Notes: generated from the sequence alone by a model not told the origin. A DNA stretch of 64,000 nt from Pseudomonadota bacterium (GCA_039931065.1 JBDTSP010000006.1:126161-190160), one strand, 5' to 3'. Positions 9,296-27,603 are shown, numbered from the stretch's first letter. Numbers and translations: made by a program.

Positions 9296-9961
9296 TTACG
9301 CCTTGCGCTGACGGCGCTTCGAGCCAAACCAGGTACCGAGCAGGCCCAGGCCGAGCAGGCCGAGCGTGGCGGGTTCCGGAACAGCCTTCGGCGTGAAGAC
9401 GGCCTTGATCAGCATGTCATCGTGGTTGTCATCCGGGCCGGCGCCCGAGTCATCCCAGAACAGCCATGCGGTGTTGCCGAAGATGCTGTACGCAATCGAC
9501 TGGAACGAGCCCAGGTTGAGGGCGTCGTTCTGAGCATTGGTGATGCAGCCCTGCGAGTGACCGGGCGAGCTGAATGCGCAAAACCCGAAGTCGAGCAGTC
9601 CGGCGCCCACATCGAGCGAGCCGATGAGCTTCGGAGCAGCAAAGAAGTTCTGCGTGGTAGGCGTGTAACCCGTGTTGTAGCTCAGGCTGCCCGAGGTGAA
9701 CACGTTCGCGTAACCGGCTTCTTTGCCGTAGTAGTAGAACGCGACCGATCCAGCCGAGTCGGTGGCGAGCGAGGCGCCGAGCGTGTACGTCGTGACACCC
9801 AGACCCGCGAAGATCGACTTGAAGTCGTTCGACGGGACGATGCCAATGGTTCCCTTGACGGGCGAAACCAGGTCGGACGTTACGAAACCGGCTTGGGCGG
9901 CTGAAGCCGAACCCAGCAGGATCGTGGCGGCGGCGAGTAATTTGATCTTGTTTGCGGTCAT
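9296..9961 (-). CDS. PEP-CTERM sorting domain-containing secreted protein
   Basis: The C-terminus VPEPATLGLLGLGLLGTWFGSKRRQRKA has the PEP motif, a TM helix and a basic tail. Signal peptide MTANKIKLLAAATILLGSASAAQA. Start taken at ATG 9961, which has RBS GAGGAAG. Confidence 0.85.
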   Translation of the reverse strand: MTANKIKLLAAATILLGSASAAQAGFVTSDLVSPVKGTIGIVPSNDFKSIFAGLGVTTYTLGASLATDSAGSVAFYYYGKEAGYANVFTSGSLSYNTGYTPTTQNFFAAPKLIGSLDVGAGLLDFGFCAFSSPGHSQGCITNAQNDALNLGSFQSIAYSIFGNTAWLFWDDSGAGPDDNHDDMLIKAVFTPKAVPEPATLGLLGLGLLGTWFGSKRRQRKA

Positions 9962-10006
9962 TTGCTCTTCCTCAGAAGGAAATTGCACTTCGGTTGCTTC
10001 AAGAGA

Positions 10007-10022
10007 TGCACTACATGTGCCA
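10007..10022 (-). promoter_or_regulatory. sigma-54 -24/-12 promoter (P1) for the PEP-CTERM gene
   Basis: The minus strand reads TGGCACATGTAGTGCA against the consensus TGGCACG-N4-TTGCW. GG and GC have the exact spacing. The -12 GC is about 47 nt upstream of ATG 9961. Confidence 0.7.
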
Positions 10023-11128: not shown

Positions 11129-11144
11129 AGCACTGTTCGTACCA
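11129..11144 (-). promoter_or_regulatory. sigma-54 -24/-12 promoter (P4) for the deacetylase gene
   Basis: The minus strand reads TGGTACGAACAGTGCT with correct GG-N10-GC spacing. The -12 GC is about 41 nt upstream of ATG 11089. Confidence 0.6.
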
Positions 11145-13745: not shown

Positions 13746-13776
13746 AAAAAAAACGGGGCAGCCGAAGCTGCCCCGT
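13745..13776 (-). terminator. intrinsic terminator of the giant gene
   Basis: The minus strand reads ACGGGGCAGC-TTCG-GCTGCCCCGT followed by T9. It lies 25 nt downstream of the stop at 13801. Confidence 0.8.
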
Positions 13777-13800
13777 TCGATCTGCTTTAAGGTCTGCGCG

Positions 13801-16800
13801 TCAGTTGCGCGTTACGGTCAACACATCGGTCCGCGTGTTACCGGCGGCATCACGCGCCGTGACCGTGAGGATGTTCACGCCGGTCAACACCGAGATCGTG
13901 CCCGTCGACCACGACGTCGTACCCGTGGCATTGCCGCTGCCGCCACGGTTGTTGGTCCAGCTGACCTGCGTGACCGCGACGTTGTCGGAGGCCGAACCGC
14001 CGAGCGTGATCGTCGAGGCAGTCTGCGTCCGCGTCGAATTGCTGGTGGGTGACGTGATCGTGATCGACGGCCGAGTGGTGTCCGTGAAGGTCACGGTCAA
14101 CGTATCCGTCTGCGTATTGCCCGCGGCATCGCGCGCGGTGACCGTAAGGACGTTAGAACCGGTCTGCAACGCGAGATTGCTGACCGACCAGGAGGTGGTA
14201 CCCGTGGCGGTGCCACTGCCACCGCGGCTGTTCACCCACGTGACCTGCGTGACGGCGACGTTGTCGGAGGCCGTGCCGGAAAGCGTGATCGGTGAAGCCG
14301 TGACCGCGAGCGTGGTCGCACTGGTCGGGCCCGTGATCGTCACCACGGGCAAGCTCGTGTCCGGGTTGTACGTGACGCTGATCGAATCCGTGCCCGTATT
14401 GCCGGCCGCATCGCGCGAGCTGACCGTGAGCACGTTGACGCCCGACTGCAGCACGATGCCGCTGACGGTCCATGCCGTGGTGCCCGACGCGGTGCCGCTG
14501 CCGCCGCGGTTGTTGGCCCACGTGACCTGCGTGACGCCGACCGCATCCGATGAGGTGCCGCCGAGGTTGAGCGAAGCCGCCGTGACCGTGGTGCTCGATG
14601 CGCTGGTCGGCGATGTAATCGTAACCACCGGCGCCGTCGTGTCCGGCGTGTAAGTGACCGTGAGGATGTCCGTACTGGTGTTGCCGGCCGCGTCACGCGC
14701 GGTGACGGTGATCACGTTCGAGCCGGTCAGCAGCACGATGCCACTCGCCGACCACGCAGTCGTGCCGGTTGCCGTGCCGCTGCCACCGCGATTGTTCACC
14801 CAGGCGACTTGCGTGACACCCACCGCATCCGAAGCCGTTCCACCGATATTGATCGGAGTTGTCGCGACCGTCGTGGTCGCGGAGCTTGTCGGTGAAGTGA
14901 TCGTCACGGAAGGCGCCGTCGTGTCCGGTGCGTTGTAGGTCACGGTGAGCGAATCGGCGCTGCTGTTGCCAGCCGCGTCGCGCGCCGTGACCGTGAGGAT
15001 GTTGGCGCCCGACTGCAGGACGACGCCCGAGACCGACCAGCTGCCGGTTCCCGTGGCGTTGCCGCTACCGCCGCGATTGTTTGACCAGGAGACCAGCGTG
15101 ACGCCGACCGCATCGGTGGCGGTGCCACCGAGTGCGAACGGCGTGCTGGTCACCGTGGTGGTCGTGGCGCTGGTCGGCGTGGTGATCGTGACCACCGGCG
15201 CGGTCGTATCCGACGACCCGCCGCTGGTGTTGAACACCACGTCCACCCAGTAGTTTTCACCGTTGTACGTGTCGGTCGGGAACACGCTGCTGCTGCCGTA
15301 CTTGTACAGGCCGTTGGAACCGCCCGAACCGTCCTGCGGCGCAAGCAACGGACCGCTCGTCACGCCGCTGGTCGTGAAGTAGTTGTCGTCGCCCGTGTAG
15401 AAGCCCGAGCTCGTGTGATACGAAACGACGTAGTCCGTGTTCGCCGTGAGCGCCACCGGCGAGGCCAGGGTCTGCACCTGCCATCCCGACGCGCTTTCAC
15501 CCGCGAACGTGACCTGTCCTAACAAGGTGCCGCTTGCGCTCCACAGGCTGCCGACATGCGTGCCGGTATTCTGCGAGTGCTTGAAGAACCGCAGGGCCGT
15601 GACGTTGCCGGCGGCGCTGGTGCGGAACCGCACGCCGAGCTCGACCGAGTTCGAGTCCGCGTCCACGCCACCGGAGGGCGTCTCGGCGGGCCAGATCGAG
15701 CACGGGCAGGCTGCGCCGCCGACCGTGAACGAAACCGTCGTCGGCGAGCTCTGCAGGTTGCCGCTGTCGTCGACCGCACGGACACGGACCGTCTGGGCTC
15801 CCGTGGTCGGCGTCGTCCAGCTGTAAGACCAGGTGCCGCGACCCGTGGCCGGATGCCACGTGGTACCGCCATCGGTCGACACTTCGACACCCGCGACCTG
15901 ACCACCCACGTCGCTCGCGCTGCCGCTGATGACGAGACCGTTCTGCGGGACATTGGCTCCCGCGACCGGCGCGATGATGGTCACCGTCGGCGCTGCGCTG
16001 TCCGACGAAGGACTCTGGGCCGAGAGGCCCGCCTGCAGCGAGGCCGGCTGTACGTTCATGTCGGCGAACAGGTTCACCGTCGCCTGCTGCATGACCAGGC
16101 TGACCGGCGTGCCTGCGCGATCGTGATTCGCGTCGAGACCCCAGGCCCACTGCACCGTGCCGGCGCCGAACACCCGGGCGCCGCTCGCGTGCTTGTACAT
16201 CGTCAACGCATGGTTGGCGGTGTCCGAGGCGTAGGTCGAACCGAAGTCCTGGAGCTTGTCGACGTTGCTCACGGTCGTATCCGACAGGCGGAACAGACCG
16301 GCCGGGCGAGCGCCGTTGTCGAGATCCGAATCCCACTCGTACCCAAGCGTGCCGTTCGGCAGCGTCAGCGTGTTCGTGCCCGTGAGATTCGCGGCAGCAG
16401 TGCCGCGCCACAGGCGCAGCTTGCCTTCAGCGGCCGGGATCACGATCGCCGACGTTCCGGAATTCACCGTGAAGACCGTGCCGGTCAAACCGTTTTCCGG
16501 GCGGCCGCCATCGGACGGCGGGCTGAAGCGCGGATCGCGCCACGTGCCGGTCCACTCGGCGCTCGGATCGAGCTTGCCGTTGAAATGCGTCTCCTTGTAC
16601 GAGACCAGCGTGCGGTAAGGCGTACCCGAACCGTCGATGCTGTTCTCCCAGCGGGTCTTCCAGAACACTTCGTTGCCGCTGAAGAACGCCATGTTGACGC
16701 CCGCTGCACGCGCGGCTTCGACGTTGGCGCGCTGCTGGCCGGACCAGTACTCGTCGTGGCCGGTCGAGATGAACGCGCGATGGCTGGTCAGCAGGTTGGC

Positions 16801-19800
16801 GGCACGATCCGTGTCGACACCCGTGATGTACGTGACGTCGTAACCGTTCGACTCGAGCCAGCGGATCATCGGGTACTCGGCGTTGAACACCCAGTCCTGG
16901 CCACCGGCTTCGCCACGCGTGGCGAACGGACGGTTGTAGCTCACCTTGTAGGCGCGACCCGGGTTGGTGCCGGGCGAACCCACGTACAGGCTGTTGCCGC
17001 CGTAGGTGTTGTAAGCCTGCCAGGTGGTGTCCGAAGTCTGGAAGACCATGTCCGAGGTGCTCGCGTCGTTGCGGACGATGAACGCGATGTGGCTGGCACC
17101 TCCCGTGTCGGTACGCACGACTTTTGCGAAGTAGACGCCGGAGGTCGCATTTGCAGGCACCGTCCATGAGCCCGAAACCGCCCAGTTGCCGCAATCGATG
17201 AGACCGGTCGAAGGCTGCGTCAGGCAGTTCGGCTGGTTCTGCGGCAGGCTCGCCGTCGGGTTGACGGTCGTGATCTTGCGCGCGCCCAGGCCGCCGTAAT
17301 AACCCATGCGGTAGATGTCGAAGCGGTAGTTAGTGGCATTGGTATCCACCTTGAACTGCACCGTGCCGCCGCGGTTCACGCTGATCTGCGTGGCGAAGCC
17401 CTGGATGCTGGCGTCGCCGGCGCCGTTGATGTCCCACTCGCTCGACGGGTTACCCGTCAGGCAGTTTTCCGCGGTGATCGCGTTGGCGGCGCACGGGCCA
17501 CCGGCCGCGGCCGTGGTGAACGACCAGCTGTCGTTGGCGATCAGTGCATTGTTGGCCGCGTCCTTGACGCGCGGATCGGTCGCGCCACCGCGCACAGTGA
17601 CCGTGTAGATGGCCGAGTTGACCAGCGCGCTGGTCGGCGTGAGCGTGGCGACGTTGCCCGAGTACGAAACGCTCGCCGGGATCAACGTGTTGCCGGCGTT
17701 ACGCAGCTCGATCGTCGAGCTGTTGATCGTGCTGGCATTCATCGCCTCGCTGAAGGTCACCAGGACCGCGCCGTTGAGCGCGACATTGGTGGCACCGCTC
17801 GCCGGCTGACGCAGCGTGATCGTCGGGGCCGTCGTGTCCGGGCCCGTGACGTTCTGGAACACGAGGTCGACCCAGTAGTTGGTCGCGCCGAACGAGCTGG
17901 TCGGGAAACCGCCGCTCGCGCCGTAGGTGTACACACCGTTGCCGCCCGCCGCCGGGTCACTCAACGCGTGCAACACGCCGTTGTCGACGCCGGTCGAGGC
18001 GAAGAAATTCGCGTTGACGGAGTAGCCGCCGTTCGGCGCGAAATACGAGGCCACGTAGGTGGTGTTCGCATCGATCGCAACCGGCGACGAGAACAGGACT
18101 TCCTGCCAGCCAGTCGCGGTTTCGCTGCCGAAGGTCGCCTGTGCGAGCAAGGTGCCGGTCGAAGTCCACAACTTGCCGACATGTGTGCCGGTGTTGCTCG
18201 GGCCCTTGTAGAAGCGGATGCCCGCGACGCTGCCACTGGTGTCCGTGCGGAACTTCACGCCCAGCTCGACGGCACCCGTATCGCTTTCGGACGCAGTCGC
18301 AGGCGTAGTCGTGCTGGGCCAGAGGGTGAGCGTGGTGACCGACGAATTCGTGGTCGTGAACGACCAGCTGTCGTTCGCCGCCAGCGCATTCAACGCAACG
18401 TCCTTGACCCGCGGATCGGTCGCACCGCCGCGCACTGTCACCGTGTACACGGTGTTCACCGCGAGCGCAGCGCTCGGGGTCAGGGTCGCGACGTTCGTGG
18501 CCGCGTTGTAGCTGACCGCGGCCGGAACCAGGGTCACGCCGTTGCGCAGTTCGATTGAGCTCGTGCTGATCGTTGCGGCGCTCATTGCCTCGTTGAAGCC
18601 GACAGTTACGGTGGTCGCGAGCGCGACTCCCGTGGCGCCCGAAGCGGGCGTGCGCGCAGTGACCGTGGGCGGCGTCGTGTCCGCGGTCGGCGTGTACGTG
18701 ACGGTCAACGTGTTGGTCGAGGTGTTGTTGGCCGCATCGCGCGCCGTCACGGTGATGACGTTGGTGCCGGACAGCAGCGTGATGTTGGAGGCCGTCCAGG
18801 ACGTCGTGCCGGCGGCGGTACCCGAACCACCGCGGTCATTGGTCCAGGAGACCTGCGTGACGCCGACGTTGTCGGAGGCCGAGCCGCCGATCGCGAGCGG
18901 AGTCACGGTCGTGCTGTGGGTCGGGGTCGCGACCGGGGTAGAAATGGTCACGGTCGGCGCGGTCGTGTCGGCGACACCGCCCGAGGTGGTGTCGAACACC
19001 ACGTCCACCCAGTAGTTAGTGCCCTGCCAGGTGGAGGACGGGAATACGCTGCCCGGAGCGTAGGTGTAGACACCATTGCCGCCGGCCGCCGCGGTGCTGA
19101 GCGCGTGCAACGCGCCGTTGTCGACTCCGGCCGAAGTGAACTGGCCGGAAGTGGCCGAGTACCCGCCCGCGGGGGCGTGATAAGAGGCGACGTAGGTCAC
19201 GCCTGCCGAGACCGGCACGGCCGTGGTGAACAGGACCTGCTGCCAGCCGCTCGCCGTTTCGGTTGCGAAAGTCGCCTGCGCGAGTGCCGTCCCCGTGGAC
19301 GACCACAACGTGCCGACGTGGACACCGGTGTTCGAGGCGCCCTTGTAGAAGCGGATGCCCTTGATGAATCCATTGACGTCGCTGGTGAACTTCAGGCCGA
19401 GTTCGACGGACGTCACGTCCGAATCCGACGCGATTGCCGGGGTATCGGTCGCGCTGAAAATCGTGCACGGGCAGGTCGGGGCCGAAGCCGTCGTGAACGA
19501 CCAGGTGGCGTTCGCGGCCATGGCATTGCCCGACATGTCCTTCACACGCGGGTCGCTGCCGCCGCCGCGCACGGTCACGGAATACGTGGCGCCGCTCGAG
19601 AGTGCGCTCGAGGGCGTGAACGTCGCGGAAAGTGTGCTGGCGCTGTAGGCGACGCTGCCGGCGACGAGCGCGTTGCCCGCGTCGCGCACTTCGAACGTGC
19701 TACTGGTGACCGAGGCCGGATCGAGCGATTCGTTGAAGGTCGCGCGGATGGGCGTGACCGACGCGACGCCGGTCGCACCGGCGGCCGGAAGGCGCGTGGT

Positions 19801-21702
19801 GACGGTCGGGCCGACCGTGTCGATCGCGTAGCTGGCCGAGTAGCTGCCGCTCGCGGCCGGGAACACCGCGTACTCGACGCCCTTGACGTTCATGATCTCG
19901 TAAGTGACGTCGGCGCCGTTGCGCAGCAGGCTGGTGAGGAAACGCGTCCCGGAGCGCCACGGCAACATGCCGGAGAGGCCATTTGCGCCCGTCGCCTGCG
20001 TGACCGTGAAACTGAGCACGTTCGACGTGAAGCTCATCGAGCCGAAGGTCGAATTGCCGCGGCCATCGAGCCAGGTGAGCATCTGCCGGCCGGAGACGAC
20101 CGGAACGTTGCGCGCGAGTGCCGCTTCAACCGTCGTCGTCGACTGGTCCATGAAAGGCTGATCGGTGTGCGCGTTGATCGTGTAGACGCCGTACTGTTCT
20201 TCCGCGCCGGTGGCGCGATCAAGCAGGGTATTCGGGGTGAACGGGTATTGCTGATCGGACTCGTCGGTCATCTGTGTGACCGCCTGGTAGACGTCGATCA
20301 GGCTGCCGTCGAGGTCGGCAAAACGCATCGGCATGGCCGAGCCGGTGAAGTGTCCGGGCGTGTTCTGCACCCAGTCGCCGGGCCAGTAGTAGTAAGACGT
20401 ATCGAGACGGATGCCATTGGCGAGCTGCACTTTCGCGGCCGACGCCCAGTCGCTCCACACGATGCAGTGATGACGTTCGGTGCTGAGCGGCGAGACGCTG
20501 GCGAACTTGTTGAAGAACGCGAGCTTCTGGTCCGTGTATCCCTGCGCGAGCGAGCTCTGTGTGAAGTCCACGCAGGTGCCGCTTTCGAAGGTGTTGACGT
20601 GCAGGCCGATTTCGAACCCTTGTGCCTGGTACGCCGAGGCCTGGGTGTTGGTCAGCGCGCCGTCGGTGAACACGTAGGAAGTGCCGCGGATACATTCCCA
20701 GTTCGCAACGGAGCAGCCCGCGGGGCTCATCGCGAGGAACTGGTCGAAGCGCTGCGCCGTGCCGCCGCCCTGCGCGGTGAACAGGAAGCCGTGGTCATCG
20801 CCGCTCATCAGGACGACCGCGCGATGCGCGTTCGGGAAGTACCAGAAGCGCGGCAACGGCTTGCGGTCCGAATTCATGTCGGTGATCAGGTTTGCGAGGA
20901 AGCGCTGCTGTTCGTCGGCCTGCGGAATCGCGACCTTGCTGCGATTGATCCAGTCAGGCTGCGGATCGCTGGCCGACGCGCCGAAGAACATGTCGTCGGA
21001 GCGGCGCGGCGCGATGCCGTCGCGTTCCTGGCCTACCCAGGCCGGATTGCCCTGGCGCGTGTAAACGATGGAAGTCGCGAGGTCGAACATGAAAGCCGCG
21101 GCCTGGCCACCGCTCGCGCCGACGCTGCGCAGCGTGACCGCGGGGTTGGCGGTAGCGGTCGTCGCGGTCGAATACAAGGTGGCGATCGAGGTCGCCCCGG
21201 CGAGTGTGCTCAGCTGGGCACTGCCATGGAACTGCAGCGTCTGACCGATGATGCCGGCACCGGACTTGGTGGAATTGTCGACAAGTAGATAGCCGTTGGA
21301 GAGCGTCGTCGCTCCCGAATTGATGCCGAGCAGGCTGGCCAGCTGCGGCGCGGGGTCCATCGCGATCAGGTTGCCACCGGCGGTTACCCAGGTGCTCAAC
21401 ATCGAAGCCTGGGTGGTCGTGACCGACTGCTTCGAGAGGATCACCACGTCATAGTTATTGAGCGTGCTCGCGGTGACGGCGCCGATTTCGGCGACCGCGA
21501 ATTCGTTGAATCCTTCGGTGCGAAGGATCTCGGCGAAGAACTTGCCGAAGTTCTGATTCCCGTTGGTGATGACCAGAATCGGCCCTCCGGGCCCCTGGTT
21601 CGGATCCGCGTGTGCAGCCCCAAGGGGAGCTGTGATCGCGGCCAAAATCAGCAGCAGGGAACGGGCGAAGTTCTTGATATTCATGTTTTTCAAGGATTCC
21701 AT
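13801..21702 (-). CDS. 2633-aa secreted multidomain protein. Order: N-terminal region of unknown function, 3x Big5/SbsA-type Ig, 3x DUF4082, an N,N-dimethylformamidase-large-subunit-like domain, and 7 further Ig-like domains
   Basis: Single uninterrupted ORF. Signal peptide MNIKNFARSLLLILAAITAPLGAAHA. The internal domain repeats are listed as separate features. There is no PEP-CTERM tail; the protein ends ...TDVLTVTRN. Confidence 0.9.
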   Translation of the reverse strand: MESLKNMNIKNFARSLLLILAAITAPLGAAHADPNQGPGGPILVITNGNQNFGKFFAEILRTEGFNEFAVAEIGAVTASTLNNYDVVILSKQSVTTTQASMLSTWVTAGGNLIAMDPAPQLASLLGINSGATTLSNGYLLVDNSTKSGAGIIGQTLQFHGSAQLSTLAGATSIATLYSTATTATANPAVTLRSVGASGGQAAAFMFDLATSIVYTRQGNPAWVGQERDGIAPRRSDDMFFGASASDPQPDWINRSKVAIPQADEQQRFLANLITDMNSDRKPLPRFWYFPNAHRAVVLMSGDDHGFLFTAQGGGTAQRFDQFLAMSPAGCSVANWECIRGTSYVFTDGALTNTQASAYQAQGFEIGLHVNTFESGTCVDFTQSSLAQGYTDQKLAFFNKFASVSPLSTERHHCIVWSDWASAAKVQLANGIRLDTSYYYWPGDWVQNTPGHFTGSAMPMRFADLDGSLIDVYQAVTQMTDESDQQYPFTPNTLLDRATGAEEQYGVYTINAHTDQPFMDQSTTTVEAALARNVPVVSGRQMLTWLDGRGNSTFGSMSFTSNVLSFTVTQATGANGLSGMLPWRSGTRFLTSLLRNGADVTYEIMNVKGVEYAVFPAASGSYSASYAIDTVGPTVTTRLPAAGATGVASVTPIRATFNESLDPASVTSSTFEVRDAGNALVAGSVAYSASTLSATFTPSSALSSGATYSVTVRGGGSDPRVKDMSGNAMAANATWSFTTASAPTCPCTIFSATDTPAIASDSDVTSVELGLKFTSDVNGFIKGIRFYKGASNTGVHVGTLWSSTGTALAQATFATETASGWQQVLFTTAVPVSAGVTYVASYHAPAGGYSATSGQFTSAGVDNGALHALSTAAAGGNGVYTYAPGSVFPSSTWQGTNYWVDVVFDTTSGGVADTTAPTVTISTPVATPTHSTTVTPLAIGGSASDNVGVTQVSWTNDRGGSGTAAGTTSWTASNITLLSGTNVITVTARDAANNTSTNTLTVTYTPTADTTPPTVTARTPASGATGVALATTVTVGFNEAMSAATISTSSIELRNGVTLVPAAVSYNAATNVATLTPSAALAVNTVYTVTVRGGATDPRVKDVALNALAANDSWSFTTTNSSVTTLTLWPSTTTPATASESDTGAVELGVKFRTDTSGSVAGIRFYKGPSNTGTHVGKLWTSTGTLLAQATFGSETATGWQEVLFSSPVAIDANTTYVASYFAPNGGYSVNANFFASTGVDNGVLHALSDPAAGGNGVYTYGASGGFPTSSFGATNYWVDLVFQNVTGPDTTAPTITLRQPASGATNVALNGAVLVTFSEAMNASTINSSTIELRNAGNTLIPASVSYSGNVATLTPTSALVNSAIYTVTVRGGATDPRVKDAANNALIANDSWSFTTAAAGGPCAANAITAENCLTGNPSSEWDINGAGDASIQGFATQISVNRGGTVQFKVDTNATNYRFDIYRMGYYGGLGARKITTVNPTASLPQNQPNCLTQPSTGLIDCGNWAVSGSWTVPANATSGVYFAKVVRTDTGGASHIAFIVRNDASTSDMVFQTSDTTWQAYNTYGGNSLYVGSPGTNPGRAYKVSYNRPFATRGEAGGQDWVFNAEYPMIRWLESNGYDVTYITGVDTDRAANLLTSHRAFISTGHDEYWSGQQRANVEAARAAGVNMAFFSGNEVFWKTRWENSIDGSGTPYRTLVSYKETHFNGKLDPSAEWTGTWRDPRFSPPSDGGRPENGLTGTVFTVNSGTSAIVIPAAEGKLRLWRGTAAANLTGTNTLTLPNGTLGYEWDSDLDNGARPAGLFRLSDTTVSNVDKLQDFGSTYASDTANHALTMYKHASGARVFGAGTVQWAWGLDANHDRAGTPVSLVMQQATVNLFADMNVQPASLQAGLSAQSPSSDSAAPTVTIIAPVAGANVPQNGLVISGSASDVGGQVAGVEVSTDGGTTWHPATGRGTWSYSWTTPTTGAQTVRVRAVDDSGNLQSSPTTVSFTVGGAACPCSIWPAETPSGGVDADSNSVELGVRFRTSAAGNVTALRFFKHSQNTGTHVGSLWSASGTLLGQVTFAGESASGWQVQTLASPVALTANTDYVVSYHTSSGFYTGDDNYFTTSGVTSGPLLAPQDGSGGSNGLYKYGSSSVFPTDTYNGENYWVDVVFNTSGGSSDTTAPVVTITTPTSATTTTVTSTPFALGGTATDAVGVTLVSWSNNRGGSGNATGTGSWSVSGVVLQSGANILTVTARDAAGNSSADSLTVTYNAPDTTAPSVTITSPTSSATTTVATTPINIGGTASDAVGVTQVAWVNNRGGSGTATGTTAWSASGIVLLTGSNVITVTARDAAGNTSTDILTVTYTPDTTAPVVTITSPTSASSTTVTAASLNLGGTSSDAVGVTQVTWANNRGGSGTASGTTAWTVSGIVLQSGVNVLTVSSRDAAGNTGTDSISVTYNPDTSLPVVTITGPTSATTLAVTASPITLSGTASDNVAVTQVTWVNSRGGSGTATGTTSWSVSNLALQTGSNVLTVTARDAAGNTQTDTLTVTFTDTTRPSITITSPTSNSTRTQTASTITLGGSASDNVAVTQVSWTNNRGGSGNATGTTSWSTGTISVLTGVNILTVTARDAAGNTRTDVLTVTRN
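13804..15210 (-). repeat. five tandem ~94-aa (~282-nt) Ig-like repeats at the C-terminus of the giant protein
   Basis: The unit is DTTAPxVTITxPTSxxTxxVTxxPxxLGGTASDxVGVTQVxWxNNRGGSGxATGTTxWSxSxxxLxxGxNxxTVTARDAAGNxxTDxLTVTY. The DNA-level periodicity is visible, e.g. GTGACCTGCGTGAC near 13965, 14245, 14525, 14810 and 15095. A sixth dispersed copy lies at about 18690-18975. Confidence 0.85.
15216..15708 (-). repeat. DUF4082 copy 3 (approximate bounds)
   Basis: CPCSIWPAE...SVELGVRFRTSAAGNVTALRFFK...GWQVQTL...NYWVDVVFN. Confidence 0.7.
16011..17500 (-). other. N,N-dimethylformamidase large-subunit-like (DUF6605-type) domain of the giant protein (approximate bounds)
   Basis: NYRFDIYRMGYYGG, TWQAYNTYGGNSLY, ISTGHDEYWSGQQR and MAFFSGNEVFWKTRWE are, from memory, typical of this family. 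Confidence 0.6.
17850..18335 (-). repeat. DUF4082 copy 2 (approximate bounds)
   Basis: AVELGVKFRTDTSGSVAGIRFYKGPSNTGTHVGKLW...NYWVDLVFQN. Confidence 0.7.
18985..19473 (-). repeat. DUF4082 copy 1 (approximate bounds)
   Basis: CPCTIFSATD...SVELGLKFTSDVNGFIKGIRFYKGASNTGVHVGTLW...NYWVDVVFD. Confidence 0.7.
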
Positions 21703-21757
21703 TGCGGAAAGTCAGCCAACAGAGAGGGGGGCACAACGTTGTGTCCTACCCCCTCCA

Positions 21758-21773
21758 AGCAAAACCCGCGCCA
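21758..21773 (-). promoter_or_regulatory. sigma-54 -24/-12 promoter (P3) for the giant gene
   Basis: The minus strand reads TGGCGCGGGTTTTGCT, the best match in the window to TGGCACG-N4-TTGCW. The -12 GC is about 57 nt upstream of ATG 21702. Confidence 0.7.
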
Positions 21774-22094
21774 ATGTGAGACCCCCGTCACGGGAACCCC
21801 CCTCCCGACCCTCAAACTGTGAGCCGAATCGCAACCTTAGGTGCCCGCCGCAGGCCCGGCGGGGGCCGACGAGGTCCGGATGGCCCCAGACGGATGCGCG
21901 GCGCGGCAAAGCTGTAAAGTTCTCCGACGCAAAATCGGATGCTTGCCGACTTGCGTCGCGCGATATGTGCAACCGCCAGGTGGCAAGAATTTCGACACAA
22001 ACAAAGTGCCAATCGCGACAAGGTGCGACGCCAATCACATACCTATGCTTCGCGCGCCTTCAACGGCTGGCTAGCACAAACACAAGAGGTTCAA

Positions 22095-22571
22095 ATGCCT
22101 GTAGCTGATTCAGTACAACTTGGCGACAACGTGAAGATCTTTCATCCGTCGCTCGTCAACTTGTATGGCTGCGTCATTGGAAAGGACTCGAAGGTCGGCG
22201 CGTTCGTGGAGATACAGAAAGGCGCGACGATCGGTGAGCGCTGCAAGATTTCCTCGCACACCTTCATTTGTGAAGGCGTCGAAATCGAAAACGAAGTGTT
22301 CGTCGGCCACGGCGTGATGTTCACGAACGATCTGTTTCCGCGCGCTGCGAACCCCGATGGGTCGCTGCAGACGGAAGCGGACTGGAAGGTCGAGAAAACC
22401 GTGGTCAAACGCGGCGCTTCGATCGGCTCCAACGCCACGATTGTCGCCGGCATCACGATCGGCGAGTTCGCGCTGATCGGCGCGGGCGCGGTGGTGACGA
22501 AAGACGTACCGCCCTATGCGGTGGCGGTCGGTGTTCCGGCCAAGGTGATCGGCGATACGCGCAAGCGTTGA
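22095..22571 (+). CDS. left-handed beta-helix N-acetyltransferase of 3-amino sugar nucleotides (WbpD/WlbB/QdtC-like)
   Basis: Hexapeptide repeats and a ...GAGAVVTKDVPPYAVAVGVPAKVIG tail. Start ATG 22095 has RBS AAGAGG. The track start 21939 is an upstream extension. Confidence 0.85.
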   Translation: MPVADSVQLGDNVKIFHPSLVNLYGCVIGKDSKVGAFVEIQKGATIGERCKISSHTFICEGVEIENEVFVGHGVMFTNDLFPRAANPDGSLQTEADWKVEKTVVKRGASIGSNATIVAGITIGEFALIGAGAVVTKDVPPYAVAVGVPAKVIGDTRKR

Positions 22572-22618
22572 GTGGTAGTTAGTCAGGCATTTTTTCAAAG
22601 GGACTCGAGGAACAACAA

Positions 22619-23659
22619 ATGATCAAGATTGGCGTCATCGGCTACGGCTACTGGGGACCGAACCTCGTGCGGACCTTTGCGGAAGCGCAACTGGGCACGA
22701 TCGCCGCCGTCTCAGATCTCGATCCGAAAAAGCTCGCGCTGGTGAACAAGCGTTACCCGGCGGTTCAGACCACTAACGATTTCCAGGACATCCTGCGCAA
22801 CCCCGCGATCGACGCGGTCGCGATCGCGACGCCGGTCAGCACACATTTCGAATTCGCCATGGCCGCCCTCAAGGCAGGCAAACACGTCTGGCTCGAAAAG
22901 CCGATGACGGAAACCTCGCTGCAGGCCCGCAAGCTGGTCGATGAAGCGCACAAGCGCAATCTCATCGTGTTCGTCGACCACACGTTTGTTTATACCGGCG
23001 CCGTCCGCAAGATGGGCGAGGTCATCAAGAGCGGCGATCTCGGCCGCGTCTACTATTACGACTCGATCCGCGTGAACCTGGGACTGTTCCAGCGCGACGT
23101 GAACGTGATCTCCGATCTCGCCGTGCACGATTTCTCGATCCTCGACTACCTGCTCAATGAGCATCCGGTCGCGATCTCGGCGAGCGGCATCAACCACTTC
23201 CCGGGCACGCCCGAGAATCTCGCCTACATCACGCTGTTCTACGATTCGGGCACCATCGCGCACGTCAACGTGAGCTGGCTCGCGCCCGTCAAGGTGCGCC
23301 AGATCCTGCTCGGCGGCAGCAAGAAGATGATCACCTACGACGATCTCGAGCCCTCCGAGAAGGTCAAGATCTACGACAAGGGCATCAGCTTCACCGAGGA
23401 CCCGAAGCAGATCCAGGAAATGCGCGTGGGTTACCGCACCGGCGACATGTGGGCGCCGAAGCTCGACGGCACCGAGGCGCTGCGCCTCGCCGGCGATCAC
23501 TTCATCGATTGCATCATCAACAAGAAAACCCCGCAGACCGACGGAGCGTTGGGCCTGCGCGTGGTCGAACTCATCGAAGCCGCCACCAGCTCCATGCGCG
23601 GCCGCGGCGAAACCGTCTACATCCAGAAAGCACAAGCACCGCAGGAGAAAATAGCGTGA
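22619..23659 (+). CDS. Gfo/Idh/MocA oxidoreductase, sugar-nucleotide 3-dehydrogenase-like (WlbA/WbpB/GnnA-type)
   Basis: MIKIGVIGYGYWGPNLVRTF Rossmann N-terminus and an EKPM motif. It sits between the acetyltransferase and the aminotransferase. Confidence 0.85.
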   Translation: MIKIGVIGYGYWGPNLVRTFAEAQLGTIAAVSDLDPKKLALVNKRYPAVQTTNDFQDILRNPAIDAVAIATPVSTHFEFAMAALKAGKHVWLEKPMTETSLQARKLVDEAHKRNLIVFVDHTFVYTGAVRKMGEVIKSGDLGRVYYYDSIRVNLGLFQRDVNVISDLAVHDFSILDYLLNEHPVAISASGINHFPGTPENLAYITLFYDSGTIAHVNVSWLAPVKVRQILLGGSKKMITYDDLEPSEKVKIYDKGISFTEDPKQIQEMRVGYRTGDMWAPKLDGTEALRLAGDHFIDCIINKKTPQTDGALGLRVVELIEAATSSMRGRGETVYIQKAQAPQEKIA

Positions 23660-24771
23660 TTCCGTTCGTCGACCTGAAAGCCCAATACCTTTCCATCAAG
23701 AAAGAAGTCGATGCCGCAATCCTGAATGTCCTCGACACCTGCCAGTTCACGCTGGGCAGCGAAGTCGCCGCATTCGAAAAGGATTTCGCGGCCTATTCGC
23801 AGGTCAAACACGGCATCGCCGTGAACAACGGCACGAGCGCGCTGCACCTGGCGCTGCTTGCCGCCAACATCGGCGAAGGTGATGAAGTCATCACCGTTCC
23901 GTTCACCTTCGTGGCTTCCGTCGCGGCTATCTACTACTCGAGAGCGACACCGGTGTTCGTCGACATCGACCCGCGCACCTTCACGATGGATCCGGCCAAG
24001 ATTGAAGCGGCCATCACACCCAAGACCAAAGCCATCCTGCCCGTGCACCTGTACGGACAGTGCGCCGACATGGACGCGATCCTCGCGATCGCGAAGAAAC
24101 ACAAGCTGATCGTGATCGAAGACGCCTGCCAGGCGCACGGCGCCGAATACAAGGGCCGGCGCGCGGGCAGCATGGGCGACATGGGCGCCTTCAGCTTCTA
24201 CCCCGGCAAGAATCTCGGCGCGTACGGCGAAGGTGGTCTCGTCTCGACCAGCAACGACGAATACAACCGCACCATCCGCATGCTGCGTGACTGGGGCGCG
24301 GAGAAGAAATATCAGCACGTGCTCAAGGGCTACAACTACCGCATGGAAGGCATCCAGGGTGCCGTCCTCAAGGTGAAGCTCAAGTACCTCGAAGGCTGGA
24401 CCGAAGCGCGCCGCACCGCCGCGGCTAACTACGCGCAGTTCTTTTCGGGCAGCAACGTGCAGACCCCGGAAGCGCTCGCGCACAACCGGCACGTCTTCCA
24501 CATCTACGCCGTGCGCACGACCGAGCGCGCCCTGTGGCAGGAGAAACTGCAGGCGCAGGGAATCTCGACCGGCATCCACTATCCGATCCCCGTGCACCTG
24601 CTGCCCGCGTATGCCGACCTCGGCTACAAGGCTGGCCAGTTCCCGCACTCCGAGCGCGCGGCCAACGAGACTCTCTCGCTGCCCATGTTCCCGGAGATGA
24701 CCGCGCAGCAGTGCCAGACCGTGGCCACCGCGGTGAAGGCGCTGGCGGAAAAGAACGTCGCAGCCGCCTGA
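23656..24771 (+). CDS. DegT/DnrJ/EryC1/StrS family aminotransferase (WbpE/WlbC-like)
   Basis: IPFVDLKAQY..., FYPGKNLGAYGEGG (PLP lysine region). The GTG start at 23656 overlaps the upstream stop (GTGA). Confidence 0.85.
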   Translation: MIPFVDLKAQYLSIKKEVDAAILNVLDTCQFTLGSEVAAFEKDFAAYSQVKHGIAVNNGTSALHLALLAANIGEGDEVITVPFTFVASVAAIYYSRATPVFVDIDPRTFTMDPAKIEAAITPKTKAILPVHLYGQCADMDAILAIAKKHKLIVIEDACQAHGAEYKGRRAGSMGDMGAFSFYPGKNLGAYGEGGLVSTSNDEYNRTIRMLRDWGAEKKYQHVLKGYNYRMEGIQGAVLKVKLKYLEGWTEARRTAAANYAQFFSGSNVQTPEALAHNRHVFHIYAVRTTERALWQEKLQAQGISTGIHYPIPVHLLPAYADLGYKAGQFPHSERAANETLSLPMFPEMTAQQCQTVATAVKALAEKNVAAA

Positions 24772-24796
24772 ACCCAACCTGCAGGAAGCGCATCGC

Positions 24797-25435
24797 GTGA
24801 GTGCCCGTCGGCCGTTGCTGATTTTTCCGTGCAACGGCAACGGGCTCGAAGCGCTCGATTGCCTGGGCGATGAGTTCGAGTGCCTCGGATTCATCGATGA
24901 CACGCCCGGGAAACAACACGCTGGCGCTTATGGCCTGAGCGTATTTCCGCGCTCCGCGCTCGTCGAGATGCGCGACGCGGCGGTGCTCGCGGTGCCCGGC
25001 GGTCCTGCCTCCTACCAGGCGCGCCGCCAGATCATCGCGGGACTTGGGGTCGCGCCCGAGCGCTTCGCGACTGTCATTCACCCGGGCGCGCACGTGTCGA
25101 AGCTCGCCCGGCTTGGCCGCAACGTGCTCGTTATGGCCGGTGCGGTCATCACGAGTAATGCCGAGATCGGCGATCACGTGTGTGTGTTACCGAATACGGT
25201 AATCCACCACGATGTGACGGTCGGCAGCTTTTCGCTGATTGGCGCCAATGTGGCCATCGCGGGCAGCGTCCGGATTGGCGACAATTGCTATGTCGGCAGT
25301 GGCAGCAACGTGAAGAACGGCCTGACCATTGGCGCCCGTGCCTTGATCGGTCTCGGCAGCAACGTGACACGCGACGTGCCCGAGGGCGCTGTCGTCGCAG
25401 GTAATCCTGCGCGGCCTGTCTCGAAGCAAGGATAG
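24797..25435 (+). CDS. NeuD/PglD-family sugar acetyltransferase
   Basis: An N-terminal Rossmann-like region is followed by hexapeptide repeats ending GNPARPV. Confidence 0.8.
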   Translation: MSARRPLLIFPCNGNGLEALDCLGDEFECLGFIDDTPGKQHAGAYGLSVFPRSALVEMRDAAVLAVPGGPASYQARRQIIAGLGVAPERFATVIHPGAHVSKLARLGRNVLVMAGAVITSNAEIGDHVCVLPNTVIHHDVTVGSFSLIGANVAIAGSVRIGDNCYVGSGSNVKNGLTIGARALIGLGSNVTRDVPEGAVVAGNPARPVSKQG

Positions 25436-25474
25436 AGAAATGAATTTGAATGGAATTGTCTTGAGGGATCGCGA

Positions 25475-26449
25475 ATGAAAATCAACGGCTCGAAAATCCT
25501 GGTCACCGGCGGCTGCGGCCTCGTGGGCTCCACCACCATCGACCTGCTGCTGCGCGACTACTCGCCGGCGCAGATCGTGATCATCGACAACCTGAACCGC
25601 GGCACGCTGCACAACGTCGACGAGGCGCTCAAGGATCCGCGCGTCTCGCTGGTCCGCGGCGACATCCGCGACGTCGAGACGATGCACAAGGTCACCGCGG
25701 GAATGGACGCCGTGATTCACATGGCCACGCTGCGTATCACCGCCTGCGCCGCCGAACCGCGCGAAGCGCTGGGCGTGATGTGCGACGGCAGCTTCAACGT
25801 GCTCGAAGCCGCTCAGGCGGCGGGCGTCAAGAAAGTCGTCGCGGCCTCCTCGGCCTCCATTTACGGCCTCGCCGAAGAATTCCCGACGAAAGAAAGCCAT
25901 CACCCCTATGCGAACCGCACCTGGTATGGCGCGAGCAAGATCATGCTCGAGGGCCTGCTGCGTTCGTACAACGACATGTTCAAACTACCGTACGTCGCCT
26001 TGCGCTACTTCAACGTCTACGGCCCGCGCATGGATCTGCACGGCCGCTACACCGAAGTGTTGATCCGCTGGATGGATCGCATCGCGGCCGGACAGCCGCC
26101 GCTGATCCTGGGCGACGGCAAGACCACGATGGACTTCATCTACATCGAAGACGTAGCGCGTTCGAATATCCTCGCGCTCGAATCCGATCTGGCCGATGAC
26201 GTGTTCAACGTCGCGAGCGGCGTCGAGACCAGCCTCAACGATCTGGCGGACGCGCTGCTGCGCGTGATGGGCAGCAAGCTCAAGCCCGAATACGGCCCCG
26301 AGCGCAGCGTCAACCCGGTTTCGCGCCGGCTGGCCTGCACGAAAAAGGCGGCCGAAAAACTCGGCTTCCGCTCGACCATCTCACTCGACGACGGTCTGTC
26401 GCGCCTGGTTGAATGGTGGCGCGCCAACAAAGACCGGATGGCAGCGTAA
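25475..26449 (+). CDS. NAD-dependent epimerase/dehydratase (extended SDR)
   Basis: ILVTGGCGLVGS, YGASK catalytic motif, RYFNVYGPR. Confidence 0.85.
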   Translation: MKINGSKILVTGGCGLVGSTTIDLLLRDYSPAQIVIIDNLNRGTLHNVDEALKDPRVSLVRGDIRDVETMHKVTAGMDAVIHMATLRITACAAEPREALGVMCDGSFNVLEAAQAAGVKKVVAASSASIYGLAEEFPTKESHHPYANRTWYGASKIMLEGLLRSYNDMFKLPYVALRYFNVYGPRMDLHGRYTEVLIRWMDRIAAGQPPLILGDGKTTMDFIYIEDVARSNILALESDLADDVFNVASGVETSLNDLADALLRVMGSKLKPEYGPERSVNPVSRRLACTKKAAEKLGFRSTISLDDGLSRLVEWWRANKDRMAA

Positions 26450-27603
26450 TGATCCCAATCATCAAGCCGATGATGGACGAGCGCGAGGCCGATGCGGCGC
26501 GCCGCGTCATTCTCTCCGGGTGGATCACCCAGGGCCCCGAGGTCGCGGCATTCGAAAAGGAATTCGCCGCCTATACGGGTGCCGACCACGCGGTCGCGGT
26601 CTCGAACTGCACGACCGCGCTGCACCTGGCGCTGATGGCGCTCGGCATCAAGCCGGGCGATGAAGTCATCACGGCCAGCCATTCGTTCATCGCGACCGCA
26701 AACGTCATCCGCTACTGCGGCGCGACGCCGGTGTTCGTCGACGTCGACCCGGTCACCTTCAACATCGATCCGGCCCGCATCGAAGCGGCGATCACTCCCA
26801 ACACGCGCGCCATCCTGTGCGTGCATCAGATGGGCATGCCCTGCGACCTTTCGGCCATCGTCAAACTCGCGCGCGCGCGCGGCCTCTACGTCATCGAAGA
26901 CGCGGCCTGCGCCATCGGCGCCGAGATCCGCTGGAACGGCCAGTGGGAAAAGATCGGCAAGGTGCACGGCGACATCGCCTGCTTCTCGTTCCATCCGCGC
27001 AAGGTGATGAGCACCGGCGACGGCGGCATGATCACCACGCCTAACAAAGAGTGGGCCGACAAATGCCGCCTGCTGCGCCAGCACGGCATGAGCGTGCCCG
27101 ACACCGTGCGTCACGGTTCGGCCAAGGTCATCTTCGAGTCGTATCCGGTCGTCGGCTACAACTTCCGCATGACGGACATCCAGGCGGCCGTCGGCCGCGA
27201 ACAGCTCAAGCGTCTCGCAGACATCGTGGCCGGGCGCCGCGCGATCGCGGATCAATATCGCGCGCTCATGAAAGACATTCCGGGGATCACCTTGCCGCAG
27301 GAGCCCGAGTGGGCCCGCAGCAACTGGCAGAGTTTCTGCGTACGCCTGCCTTCGACCCTCGATCAACGCGCGGTCATGCAACAGATGCTCGACGCGGGCG
27401 TTTCCACGCGCCGCGGCATCATGTGCAGTCATCGCGAGGAGCCGTATCGCGACGCGCGCCGTTCGGGAGACCTGAAACACTCCGAAGCCGCGCAGGATCA
27501 TTGCATCGTGTTGCCGCTGTACGGCCAGATGAGCACGGCGGACGTCCACGCCGTCGCGCAGGCGCTGCGCGGCGCTTGCGACGTCGCCAGCCGTGCGGCC
27601 TGA
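26449..27603 (+). CDS. DegT/DnrJ/EryC1/StrS family aminotransferase (second copy)
   Basis: MIPIIKPMMDEREADAARRVILSGWITQGPEV..., FSFHPRKVMSTGDGG. ATG 26449 overlaps the upstream stop (TAATG). Confidence 0.85.
   Translation: MIPIIKPMMDEREADAARRVILSGWITQGPEVAAFEKEFAAYTGADHAVAVSNCTTALHLALMALGIKPGDEVITASHSFIATANVIRYCGATPVFVDVDPVTFNIDPARIEAAITPNTRAILCVHQMGMPCDLSAIVKLARARGLYVIEDAACAIGAEIRWNGQWEKIGKVHGDIACFSFHPRKVMSTGDGGMITTPNKEWADKCRLLRQHGMSVPDTVRHGSAKVIFESYPVVGYNFRMTDIQAAVGREQLKRLADIVAGRRAIADQYRALMKDIPGITLPQEPEWARSNWQSFCVRLPSTLDQRAVMQQMLDAGVSTRRGIMCSHREEPYRDARRSGDLKHSEAAQDHCIVLPLYGQMSTADVHAVAQALRGACDVASRAA

Follow-up and report, generated by a model that had tools for sequence, protein, structure and literature searches.

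The subject of this study is a giant gene in a stretch of 64,000 nucleotides (nt) from a Pseudomonadota bacterium (GCA_039931065.1, JBDTSP010000006.1:126161-190160), which we call the window. The gene occupies 13801..21702 on the minus strand, starts with an ATG and encodes a protein of 2633 amino acids (aa), with its stop codon within 13801-13803. The GC content at third codon positions (GC3) of this open reading frame (ORF) is 0.86 overall and 0.81-0.90 in each 200-codon block, and because it holds along the whole length, we take the frame to be a real coding sequence. The first ATG is not kept in orthologues; judging from the sequence, the ATG at codon 7 may be the true start.

An initial annotation had described the product as a secreted mosaic protein that runs from a signal peptide to five tandem immunoglobulin-like (Ig-like) domains, with ten Ig-like domains in total. 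Exactly this order was found by Pfam and by searching the giant protein with its own domains (self-phmmer), which set the domain borders (Table 1). Pfam reported three copies of DUF4082 (PF13313; 491 bits over the three copies against a cutoff of 28.4), a DMFA2_C domain at residues 1461-1860 (349 bits) and three Big_5 domains, and the other Ig families matched were Big_7, Glucodextran_B and Big_13. Threonine and serine make up 25% of the residues. The claimed secretion signal is present in the translation at residues 1-32, and the PEP-CTERM tail said to be missing is indeed absent, since the PEP-CTERM profiles (TIGR02595 / PF07589) had no match in the giant protein, which ends in ...VLTVTRN. 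PADLOC gave no match either, and a role in anti-phage defence was rejected.

Table 1. Features of the giant gene, its upstream region and its divergent neighbours, in window coordinates.
Feature	Position	Strand	Basis
Sec-type signal peptide, residues 1-32 (...APLGAAHA/DPNQ), AXA-type, without lipobox Cys	21607..21702	-	read from translation; low predicted local distance difference test score (pLDDT) in model
N-module, three domains	residues 33-627	-	self-phmmer
N-module domain 1 (~residues 40-240), GATase1/ThuA fold like GH42 oligomerisation domain	20983..21585	-	AlphaFold2 (AF2) + Foldseek
N-module domain 2 (~residues 285-550), NodB/CE4-fold beta/alpha barrel	20053..20850	-	AF2 + Foldseek
N-module domain 3 (residues 552-627), beta-sandwich	19822..20049	-	AF2 secondary structure
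Big_5 Ig-like domain 1 (residues 628-738)	19489..19821	-	Pfam + self-phmmer
DUF4082 copy 1 (residues 753-899), CPC motif ahead	19006..19446	-	Pfam + self-phmmer
Ig-like domain (residues 916-1002), C-terminal tandem-repeat type	18697..18957	-	self-phmmer
Big_5 Ig-like domain 2 (residues 1008-1117)	18352..18681	-	self-phmmer
DUF4082 copy 2 (residues 1132-1278)	17869..18309	-	Pfam (190 bits) + self-phmmer
Big_5 Ig-like domain 3 (residues 1289-1397)	17512..17838	-	self-phmmer
DMFase-like region (residues 1400-1880): Ig-like sub-domain + ThuA-like catalytic domain (DMFA2_C 1461-1860)	16063..17505	-	Pfam
Big_7 Ig-like domain (residues 1905-1991)	15730..15990	-	Pfam + self-phmmer
DUF4082 copy 3 (residues 2007-2153), CPC motif ahead	15244..15684	-	Pfam + self-phmmer
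Five tandem Ig-like domains (residues 2169-2631)	13810..15198	-	self-phmmer; no PEP-CTERM or other anchor beyond
Intrinsic terminator hairpin, 12-bp GC-rich stem + T-run	13751..13778	-	free energy (dG) -25.9 kcal/mol, z -3.97
Sigma-54-type -24/-12 element TGGCGCGGGTTTTGCT	21758..21773	-	motif scan; 56-71 nt upstream of ATG
Conserved 34-nt upstream block AAGGTTGCGATTCGGCTCACAGTTTGAGGGT	21808..21841	-	three-way alignment A3; ~35-70 nt upstream of -24 element
Six-gene amino-sugar cassette, divergent from giant gene	22095..27603	+	NCBIfam

The first ~630 aa, which the initial annotation had called unassigned, belong to what is, by sequence comparison, a conserved three-domain module outside any Pfam family, and no other part of the protein is as conserved or as widespread. 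When 5.8 billion proteins were searched with this N-module, 2899 relatives were found at E<=1e-5. The best 120 of these, which are the ones described here, share 54-63% identity over more than 90% of the query and come from Burkholderiales, Cyanobacteria, Myxococcota, Actinomycetota, Chloroflexota, Geobacteraceae and Thermoanaerobaculia; none of the 120 has a Pfam domain over the region. An exhaustive HMMER scan of 1.84 billion cluster representatives found the N-module in 1871 clusters at the E<=1e-3 level and in 686 at E<=1e-30; proteins of 1500-3900 aa are numerous among them. In many relatives the module stands alone, at ~620-680 aa, without Ig repeats or DUF4082, and in others it is fused to Big_5 plus DUF4082, to ConA-like/3-keto-disaccharide-hydrolase domains, to Laminin_G_3 or to FN3. 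Among 78 N-module sequences ~80 positions are invariant, including D302, H304, H368, R410, H412, C413, D480, E481, H512 and D514. On this conservation, the module is family-defining and catalytic-looking and not filler.

Structure prediction of this part gave a confident AlphaFold2 model (pLDDT 92.9, predicted TM-score 0.92) with a GATase1-like domain, a NodB/CE4-fold barrel and a beta-sandwich. Domain 1 was matched by the GATase1-like domains of GH42, GH35 and GH164 enzymes (Foldseek E 4e-8), with the GH42-type matches spanning this domain only (~205-215 aligned columns). The ThuA-like stretch proposed earlier is thus recovered at the level of fold, although in Pfam it stays below threshold, where ThuA (E 1.7e-3), DUF4350 and Glyco_hydro_42M appear as weak matches. 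Domain 1 has no invariant Cys or His among the 78 sequences and is therefore probably non-catalytic. Domain 3 has no Pfam match. Membership in DUF2194 (PF09960) was considered and rejected, the match being limited to domain 1 (E 0.078) and recurring in only 2 of 35 family members (best E 0.13).

The proposal of a NodB-like stretch was supported at the level of fold. When modelled alone, the central barrel reached a pLDDT of 88, and its ten best Foldseek matches are all CE4 structures (E 4e-5 to 1e-3, TMt 0.55-0.66). The nearest neighbours are 3rxz, PdaC (6h8l), 2c71 and 2vyo (E 4e-5 to 6e-4, TM 0.53-0.66), and GH38, Agd3 (6nwz, CE18), NDST1 and BpsB (5bu6) match with lower scores. In the model the barrel has the distorted (beta/alpha)7 form of the CE4 fold, and the invariant Asp and His residues fall at or just after predicted strand ends, the usual place of the active site in barrels of this type. 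Candidates for the Asp-His-His metal triad of CE4 and its catalytic Asp (base) and His (acid), all of them invariant and with a geometry that is only predicted, are GDDHG (300-304), H368, R410/H412, SDW (417-419) and NAHTD (510-514). In our own reading, GDDHG and NAHTD resemble CE4 motifs 1 and 5. Based on the model, the invariant Asp/His cluster probably binds a metal, and the barrel is a putative metal-dependent hydrolase or deacetylase centre.

The same matches bear on a different reading, in which the protein is a glycosidase- or lyase-type depolymerase, with a GH38/GH57-like barrel and carbohydrate-binding DUF4082, that trims, releases or disperses the cell's own polysaccharide or scavenges foreign glycans. 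The N-module shares its kit of barrel, GATase1-like domain and beta-sandwich with GH42, GH35 and GH164, its top Foldseek matches, in which these parts form one catalytic unit; GH38 alpha-mannosidase II is among the barrel matches (E 0.03-0.05, TMq ~0.5); and homologues are fused to 3-keto-disaccharide-hydrolase or ConA-like domains. Hydrolases are also frequent in exopolysaccharide (EPS) loci, where PelA carries a hydrolase domain and Gram-positive pel loci encode a separate one (PMC7890745). However, the GH42-type matches are confined to the GATase-like, probably non-catalytic domain, and CE4 deacetylases beat GH38 by about three orders of magnitude in barrel E-value. No GH42 catalytic (beta/alpha)8 domain was found in the N-module: only the accessory GATase-like domain matches, and where GH42 has a (beta/alpha)8 TIM barrel with two catalytic Glu, the N-module has a seven-stranded barrel of NodB type. 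The domain order is also permuted, with the GATase-like domain first. Further, a depolymerase would leave unexplained the second enzyme-like module of the protein (see below), whose family has only amidases among its characterised members, and the neighbouring cassette is notable for N-acetylation steps. We regard this reading as unlikely.

The second candidate catalytic module is the region that resembles the large subunit of N,N-dimethylformamidase (DMFase). Its assignment in the initial annotation was upheld, as was that of DUF4082: the DMFA2_C profile (PF20254) scored 348.7 bits against a gathering cutoff of 27, with profile positions 2-372 of 374 covered. A profile (A4) built from ten phylogenetically spread homologues of 64-75% identity matched two solved enzymes in the PDB, N-acetyl-(R)-beta-phenylalanine acylase (8i5a, E 6e-14) and the DMFase large subunit (6lvb, E 2.6e-7), with low bit scores to both (33-55 bits). 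Both of these characterised relatives cleave small N-acyl (formyl or acetyl) amides. In DMFase, two Tyr and a Glu hold Fe(III), and the variants Y440A, E521A and H519A are inactive (PMC7686228). In the alignment, Y399, Y440, H519 and E521 of DMFase fall on Y1564, Y1573, H1649 and E1651 of the giant protein, all four of which are invariant. Since the residues aligned to the iron ligands and the catalytic His are invariant, the domain is probably not a decayed relic, and the metal site that the initial annotation had proposed to look for appears intact by sequence, with the column of Y399 being the weak one.

The relationship to the known enzymes has clear boundaries. The giant protein shares with DMFase and the acylase the DMFA2_C domain, a ThuA-like catalytic domain, the split Ig-like domain I and the aligned iron-ligand and His residues. 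In contrast, the alignment to 6lvb jumps from ~residue 34 to 338, so that the pentraxin domain II is missing, and the combination of pentraxin domain II and small subunit that marks a DMFase proper was not found for the giant protein. DMFase is a cytoplasmic alpha2beta2 enzyme acting on a small solvent molecule, whereas the DMFase-like domain is embedded in a secreted protein of 2,633 aa and its substrate is presumably a glycan N-acyl group.

DUF4082, a beta-rich module, is the third that recurs. Thirty positions are invariant among 17 copies, many of them aromatic or polar, and neither a single sequence nor a 17-sequence profile matched anything in the PDB. From this composition and from the position next to the catalytic modules, we infer that DUF4082 is a glycan-binding module. 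In the accessible literature DUF4082 is rare, appearing once as a predicted secreted protein of Methylococcus, and a search with DUF4082, PF13313, PF20254, DMFA2 and acylase found no functional study of such proteins. As a separate observation, a C-P-C-[TS]-I-[FW] motif precedes DUF4082 copies 1 and 3 (residues ~745-752 and ~1999-2006; nt ~19447-19470 and ~15685-15708) and is absent from copy 2. It could form a disulfide or bind a metal.

The initial annotation had suggested either a matrix enzyme or an adhesin acting on EPS. A mainly structural role, as an adhesin or matrix scaffold whose enzyme-like modules are lectin-like, or as a protein whose Thr/Ser-rich Ig repeats are O-glycosylated with sugars from the neighbouring cassette, would fit the ten Ig-like domains with their Thr- and Ser-rich composition, the three DUF4082 copies rich in invariant aromatic and polar residues, and the PEP-CTERM matrix proteins encoded at the same locus. 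Di-N-acetylated sugars such as bacillosamine also occur in bacterial glycoprotein glycans, which speaks for a glycoprotein. Nevertheless, the potential catalytic residues, including the whole DMFase iron-site set, are invariant across phyla at 54-75% identity, which is the pattern of active enzymes, and many family members are stand-alone N-modules lacking Ig and DUF4082. No oligosaccharyltransferase-type gene was identified adjoining the giant gene, the only Wzy_C/O-antigen-ligase-type match in the window (37367-38800) being inside the XrtA locus described below. The invariance of these putative catalytic residues from phylum to phylum makes a purely adhesive role less likely. The enzyme half of the earlier suggestion is the better supported one; we consider a mainly structural protein quite improbable.

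To learn what accompanies the gene elsewhere, one genome per species was scanned, which yielded at least 529 N-module loci; 80 of them were analysed by searching their six-frame ORFs with the window's own domains and neighbour proteins. The nearest loci are from metagenome-assembled genomes (MAGs) of Steroidobacteraceae (81% and 77% identity), and the window therefore probably derives from a member of this family. DUF4082 shares an ORF with the N-module at 69 of the 80 loci. A DMFase-like domain is present at 51, at 38 of them in the same ORF, where it follows the N-module in 26 cases and lies ahead of it in 12. Solirubrobacterales, Thermoleophilaceae, Rubrobacteraceae and Vicinamibacterales typically have the modules in reverse, as DMFA2-DUF4082-Big_5-N-module. 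Since Actinomycetota and some Acidobacteriota have this reversed order, the trio was, to judge from the ORFs, assembled or rearranged at least twice, and fusion in both orders argues that N-module, DUF4082 and DMFase-like domain work together.

Some further variation in architecture was recorded. The Actinomycetota and Acidobacteriota loci with reversed modules are L042, L050, L054, L057-L059, L063, L068, L070, L077, L078 and L080. In Methylococcales and Competibacteraceae (L020, L022, L027, L029, L040, L041, L043, L051) the N-module starts ~800 codons into a stop-to-stop ORF, and these homologues probably carry an extra N-terminal region unlike any domain of the window. Tandem N-module paralogues, with the second gene directly after the first, were seen in L057 (~9314) and L083 (~12023).

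The six-gene cassette that diverges from the giant gene encodes a small hexapeptide acetyltransferase, a Gfo/Idh/MocA oxidoreductase, a DegT aminotransferase, a NeuD/PglD-type acetyltransferase, a short-chain dehydrogenase/reductase (SDR) epimerase/dehydratase and a second DegT aminotransferase. At least three of its six genes lie within 10 kb of the N-module at 28 of the 80 loci, and at 22 of the 50 loci with complete flanks. These linked loci belong to Gammaproteobacteria, Burkholderiales, Cyanobacteria, Chloroflexota, Acidobacteriota and Actinomycetota, with the cassette often directly adjacent and its gene order varied. In Methylococcales and Competibacteraceae the cassette directly follows the homologue on the same strand; in Burkholderiales the homologue sits between the cassette halves and Wzc-like genes; and linkage was also found in Calothrix, Roseiflexaceae, Oscillochloris, Thermoflexales, Bryobacteraceae, Solibacteraceae, Thermoleophilaceae and Solirubrobacterales. 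One locus (L005) is fully syntenic with the window over 9.3-31.5 kb, and in the Pfam-annotated locus L002 the homologue lies inside a polysaccharide locus, with Polysacc_synt_2, Bac_transf and Wzc-like genes at one flank and DegT, flippase and GT2 genes at the opposite one. Between the linked cassette proteins and those of the window the identity is 57-80%, even in Chloroflexota and Cyanobacteria, and since this far exceeds generic family similarity, the genes are, at the sequence level, orthologues travelling with the giant gene. The cassette accompanies 24 of 51 loci with a DMFase-like domain and 4 of 29 without one (odds ratio 5.6, p 0.003, uncorrected for phylogeny).

The initial annotation had placed the gene between exosortase-system genes and proposed co-occurrence with xrtA as a check. 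Placement among exosortase-system genes was confirmed for the window, where a TIGR03006 deacetylase gene, PEP-CTERM genes and the core locus flank the giant gene. A general association with XrtA was rejected, because XrtA-type markers are near only 5 of the 80 loci; export genes of any type are near 19. By these counts the conserved genomic partner is the six-gene amino-sugar cassette and not the exosortase system.

The loci also bear on the nature of the substrate. The protein might instead hydrolyse amides or esters in a substrate other than a carbohydrate, such as the stem peptides of peptidoglycan, N-acyl amines, lipids, or small environmental formamides and acetamides, and its linkage to the cassette would then be coincidental or regulatory. 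The substrates of characterised DMFase-family members are small molecules, DMF (N,N-dimethylformamide) and N-acetyl-beta-phenylalanine, and over half of the homologous loci have no polysaccharide genes within 10 kb. However, coincidence hardly explains cassette orthologues of such identity in six phyla in varied order, and in fold the N-module barrel most closely resembles carbohydrate deacetylases. In addition, multi-modular repeats of beta-sandwich domains with Ig spacers are a carbohydrate-active enzyme architecture typical of enzymes for insoluble polymers. A non-carbohydrate substrate therefore seems very improbable to us.

Taken together, these analyses lead us to favour, tentatively and at a little less than even confidence, the reading that the giant protein acts outside the cell as an enzyme, using two catalytic modules to strip N-acyl groups off a multiply N-acetylated amino-sugar polymer, with DUF4082 binding the glycan. 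The protein would leave the cytoplasm by Sec export and would reach the exterior by a presumed outer-membrane route. Module 1 (residues 33-627) combines the GH42-oligomerisation-like domain with a NodB/CE4-fold barrel that would bear an amidohydrolase-type centre, and module 2 (residues 1400-1880) would be a DMFase-family amidase with a 2-Tyr-1-Glu iron site and a catalytic His; the three DUF4082 copies would hold the glycan and the ten Ig-like domains would be spacers. The cassette can be read as two triads of oxidation/dehydration, transamination and N-acetylation, similar at the family level to WbpB/E/D and to a dehydratase with PglE/PglD, whose pathway chemistry is established. Because of this resemblance, it would be expected to make sugars with two or more N-acetyl groups. 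A polymer of these sugars could leave the cell through the neighbouring Wzm/Wzt ATP-binding cassette (ABC) transporter, and the giant protein would then bind it, strip N-acyl groups and leave free amines, in the manner of PgaB, IcaB, PelA and Agd3 on their own polymers. A broader proposal, that a new carbohydrate-esterase-like family whose NodB-fold barrel has no sequence relative in Pfam, CAZy or PDB, a DMFase-type iron amidase and a glycan-binding DUF4082 jointly de-N-acylate a multiply N-acetylated amino-sugar polymer outside the cell, that the cassette was inherited or transferred along with them, and that they constitute an unrecognised protein family spanning at least six bacterial phyla, is possible but in our view doubtful.

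Several observations weigh against de-N-acylation by two modules. For the first module, the central barrel had no Pfam match even at E<=10, the Polysacc_deac_1/CE4 profile had none in 35 N-module family members, and neither a single N-module sequence nor the 78-sequence profile matched anything in the PDB. Aligned by hhalign to the CE4 deacetylase of the window itself, the N-module reached a probability of 0.2, and CE4 membership by sequence was rejected. The clustering of the invariant residues into a metal site is deduced from their positions relative to strands, and the fold superfamily of the barrel includes glycosidases (GH38, E ~0.03), so that the chemistry could be glycosidic and not amidic. 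For the second module, the equivalence of Y399 depends on a local alignment that is weak (3 bits with DMFase, 13 bits with the acylase). The activity of DMFase requires its small subunit (PMC7686228), and none was noticed among the neighbouring ORFs, where no search with a small-subunit sequence was made. A term search for DMFA2 in the literature led only to papers on DMF degradation or to unrelated ones. Glycan binding by DUF4082 is predicted without a known structural relative, and activity is likewise a prediction for every member of the family. Moreover, two canonical CE4 deacetylases are already encoded in the window (10115-11089 and 54938-56089). As to the genomic context, 45 of the 80 loci have fewer than two polysaccharide-type genes within 10 kb, L001 and L003 have no polysaccharide context around the homologue, and the enrichment of the cassette is judged against the expectation that a cassette of this kind fills well below 1% of a genome and not against a computed genomic background.

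In architecture, the known protein closest to the N-module is, judging from the models, the deacetylase PelA of Gram-positive bacteria (PelA_DA of the Bacillus cereus type). Gram-positive PelA is described as combining a GH42-oligomerisation-like domain and a CE4 domain (PMC7890745); it has the same pair of folds as the N-module, is extracytoplasmic and is encoded within a polysaccharide locus. In contrast, the two have no detectable sequence relation, with DUF2194 at noise level and Polysacc_deac_1 absent. PelA_DA is anchored by a transmembrane helix, whereas the giant protein has a cleavable signal peptide and no anchor, and adds three DUF4082, the DMFase-like module and ten Ig-like domains to the PelA-like pair. 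The substrate of PelA is the Pel polymer rich in N-acetylgalactosamine (GalNAc), while that of the giant protein would be a di- or multi-N-acetylated amino-sugar polymer. With PgaB, IcaB, Gram-negative PelA and Agd3 the giant protein would share extracytoplasmic deacetylation after polymerisation, giving a cationic adhesive polymer. These enzymes have a NodB-type barrel as well, with a match to the N-module at the level of fold only (Agd3, E 0.03), and as in Agd3, a catalytic domain would be paired with a dedicated binding module. However, the canonical CE4 motifs are unrecognisable in the N-module by profile methods, and none of the four has a second, DMFase-type amidase domain or DUF4082, both of which the giant protein has. 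Like substrates of the XrtA/PEP-CTERM system, the giant gene lies inside an XrtA-type EPS region, and a sigma-54-type promoter is common to it, the neighbouring PEP-CTERM gene and the deacetylase gene. PEP-CTERM substrates carry a PEP motif, a transmembrane helix and a basic tail; the neighbours at 9296-9988 and 30751-31458 match this signal, whereas the giant protein has no sorting signal.

The remaining genes of the window were also surveyed. Beyond the cassette are Wzm/Wzt ABC-exporter genes, a GT2 glycosyltransferase and the PEP-CTERM protein at 30751-31458. On the left side of the giant gene are genes for a PAS/GGDEF/EAL protein, a kinase, GalE, a histidine kinase and a response regulator (7822-9192), followed by the PEP-CTERM protein at 9296-9988, the TIGR03006 deacetylase at 10115-11089, a major facilitator superfamily (MFS) transporter at 11345-12604, and a protein at 12594-13745. 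The last begins with a transmembrane segment, continues with a linker rich in Ala and Pro and ends in a part that by eye resembles TolB or a beta-propeller; it had no Pfam match. The MFS gene and the gene at 12594-13745 (together 11345-13745, plus strand) are also adjacent in three gammaproteobacterial loci, and homologues lie at most 10 kb upstream in a Solirubrobacterales locus (44-88% identity; L004, L005, L030, L078).

From 34 kb to the end of the window extends the XrtA-type EPS locus, with its core at 39.9-64 kb. It encodes glycosyltransferases, a Wzy-like protein and the XrtA-system amidotransferase; the stp1/stp2 glycosyltransferases and FemAB; and an outer-membrane protein together with a tyrosine kinase, a chain-length determinant, an export protein and PrsT. 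None of the window ORFs tested was recognised as an XrtA exosortase gene, which may be located beyond the window or in an ORF other than those tested. Two further genes inside this locus were recorded. An 858-aa protein at 48422-50998 (minus strand) has PcRGLX-like (rhamnogalacturonan-lyase-like) N-terminal and central domains and is, from its sequence, a candidate polysaccharide lyase or hydrolase of the XrtA system. The gene at 54938-56089 (plus strand) encodes the second canonical CE4 deacetylase (Polysacc_deac_1, 91 bits).

The initial annotation had also claimed a strong sigma-54 promoter, the best in the window, and a clean terminator for the giant gene. The terminator was confirmed; it stands just past the stop codon, between the giant gene and the convergent gene at 12594-13745. 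As for the promoter, the motif TGGCGC-N5-TTGCT has one mismatch to TGGCAC-N5-TTGCW, keeps GG at -24 and GC at -12, and is on the right strand and in the right position. Support from motif counts alone was rejected, since the window has 26 matches against 29.5 expected with up to two mismatches and 4 against 2.0 with up to one, which is not above chance in comparison with shuffles. However, in two close orthologous loci from Steroidobacteraceae MAGs (L004 and L005), to which the conservation analysis was confined, the -24/-12 element is equally placed (166-168 nt before residue 33), and its TTGGC...TTGCTT core is invariant in these and the window while the intergenic DNA around it has diverged. 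A phylogenetically conserved sigma-54 promoter is thus plausible from the alignment, and would drive expression of the giant gene; the claim that it is the best in the window comes down to a tie with the element at 10007-10022, which likewise has one mismatch. Sigma-54-like matches upstream of the N-module in Methylococcales were discarded as probably inside coding sequence, because of the position of the N-module ~800 codons into the ORF.

The 34-nt block upstream of this promoter is nearly invariant in the three orthologous loci, flanked by intergenic DNA that has diverged, and is a candidate site for an enhancer-binding protein or integration host factor (IHF). A gene for a sigma-54-dependent response regulator is found at 7822-9192. 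A hairpin or palindrome, GGGGGTAGGACACAACGTTGTGCCCCCC (21725-21752, minus strand), closely follows the -12 element, where the mRNA is predicted to have its 5' end. It is conserved in the three Steroidobacteraceae loci (L004:1871-1924, L005:9932-9985), and 2 of its 13 pairs are preserved although both partners have changed. It may serve as a stem that stabilises the mRNA or as a binding site for a regulator. Sigma-54-type GG-N10-GC elements are also present at 10007-10022 (TGGCACATGTAGTGCA, minus strand), before the PEP-CTERM gene 9296-9988, and at 11129-11144 (TGGTACGAACAGTGCT, minus strand), before the XrtA-system deacetylase gene 10115-11089. The location of these two elements directly upstream of neighbouring genes suggests a small sigma-54 regulon in the region.

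In conclusion, an extracellular polysaccharide-modifying enzyme encoded in an EPS region is of a known kind, but its catalytic families and their association with the cassette are undescribed in the accessible literature. For exopolysaccharides such as poly-N-acetylglucosamine (PNAG), Pel and galactosaminogalactan, post-export deacetylation decides whether the polymer adheres to cells and surfaces, and to our knowledge all known enzymes of this step are CE4 or CE18. If our reading is true, the family would point to a different set of enzymes for it, including a candidate new esterase family outside current domain databases, and DUF4082 would gain its first function. DMF is a synthetic compound, which makes the origin of the DMFase family puzzling. 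Glycan N-deacylation would provide a natural ancestral role; a DMFase-type 2-Tyr-1-Glu iron amidase would be placed in a glycan context for the first time, with a possible origin for the solvent-degrading enzyme. The tight linkage to the cassette would make the substrate experimentally accessible. Finally, because the family is widespread in lineages of soil, wastewater and freshwater (Steroidobacteraceae, Burkholderiales, methanotrophs, Competibacteraceae, Nostocales, Chloroflexota, Acidobacteriota and Solirubrobacterales), it may matter for the chemistry of floc, granule and biofilm matrices.

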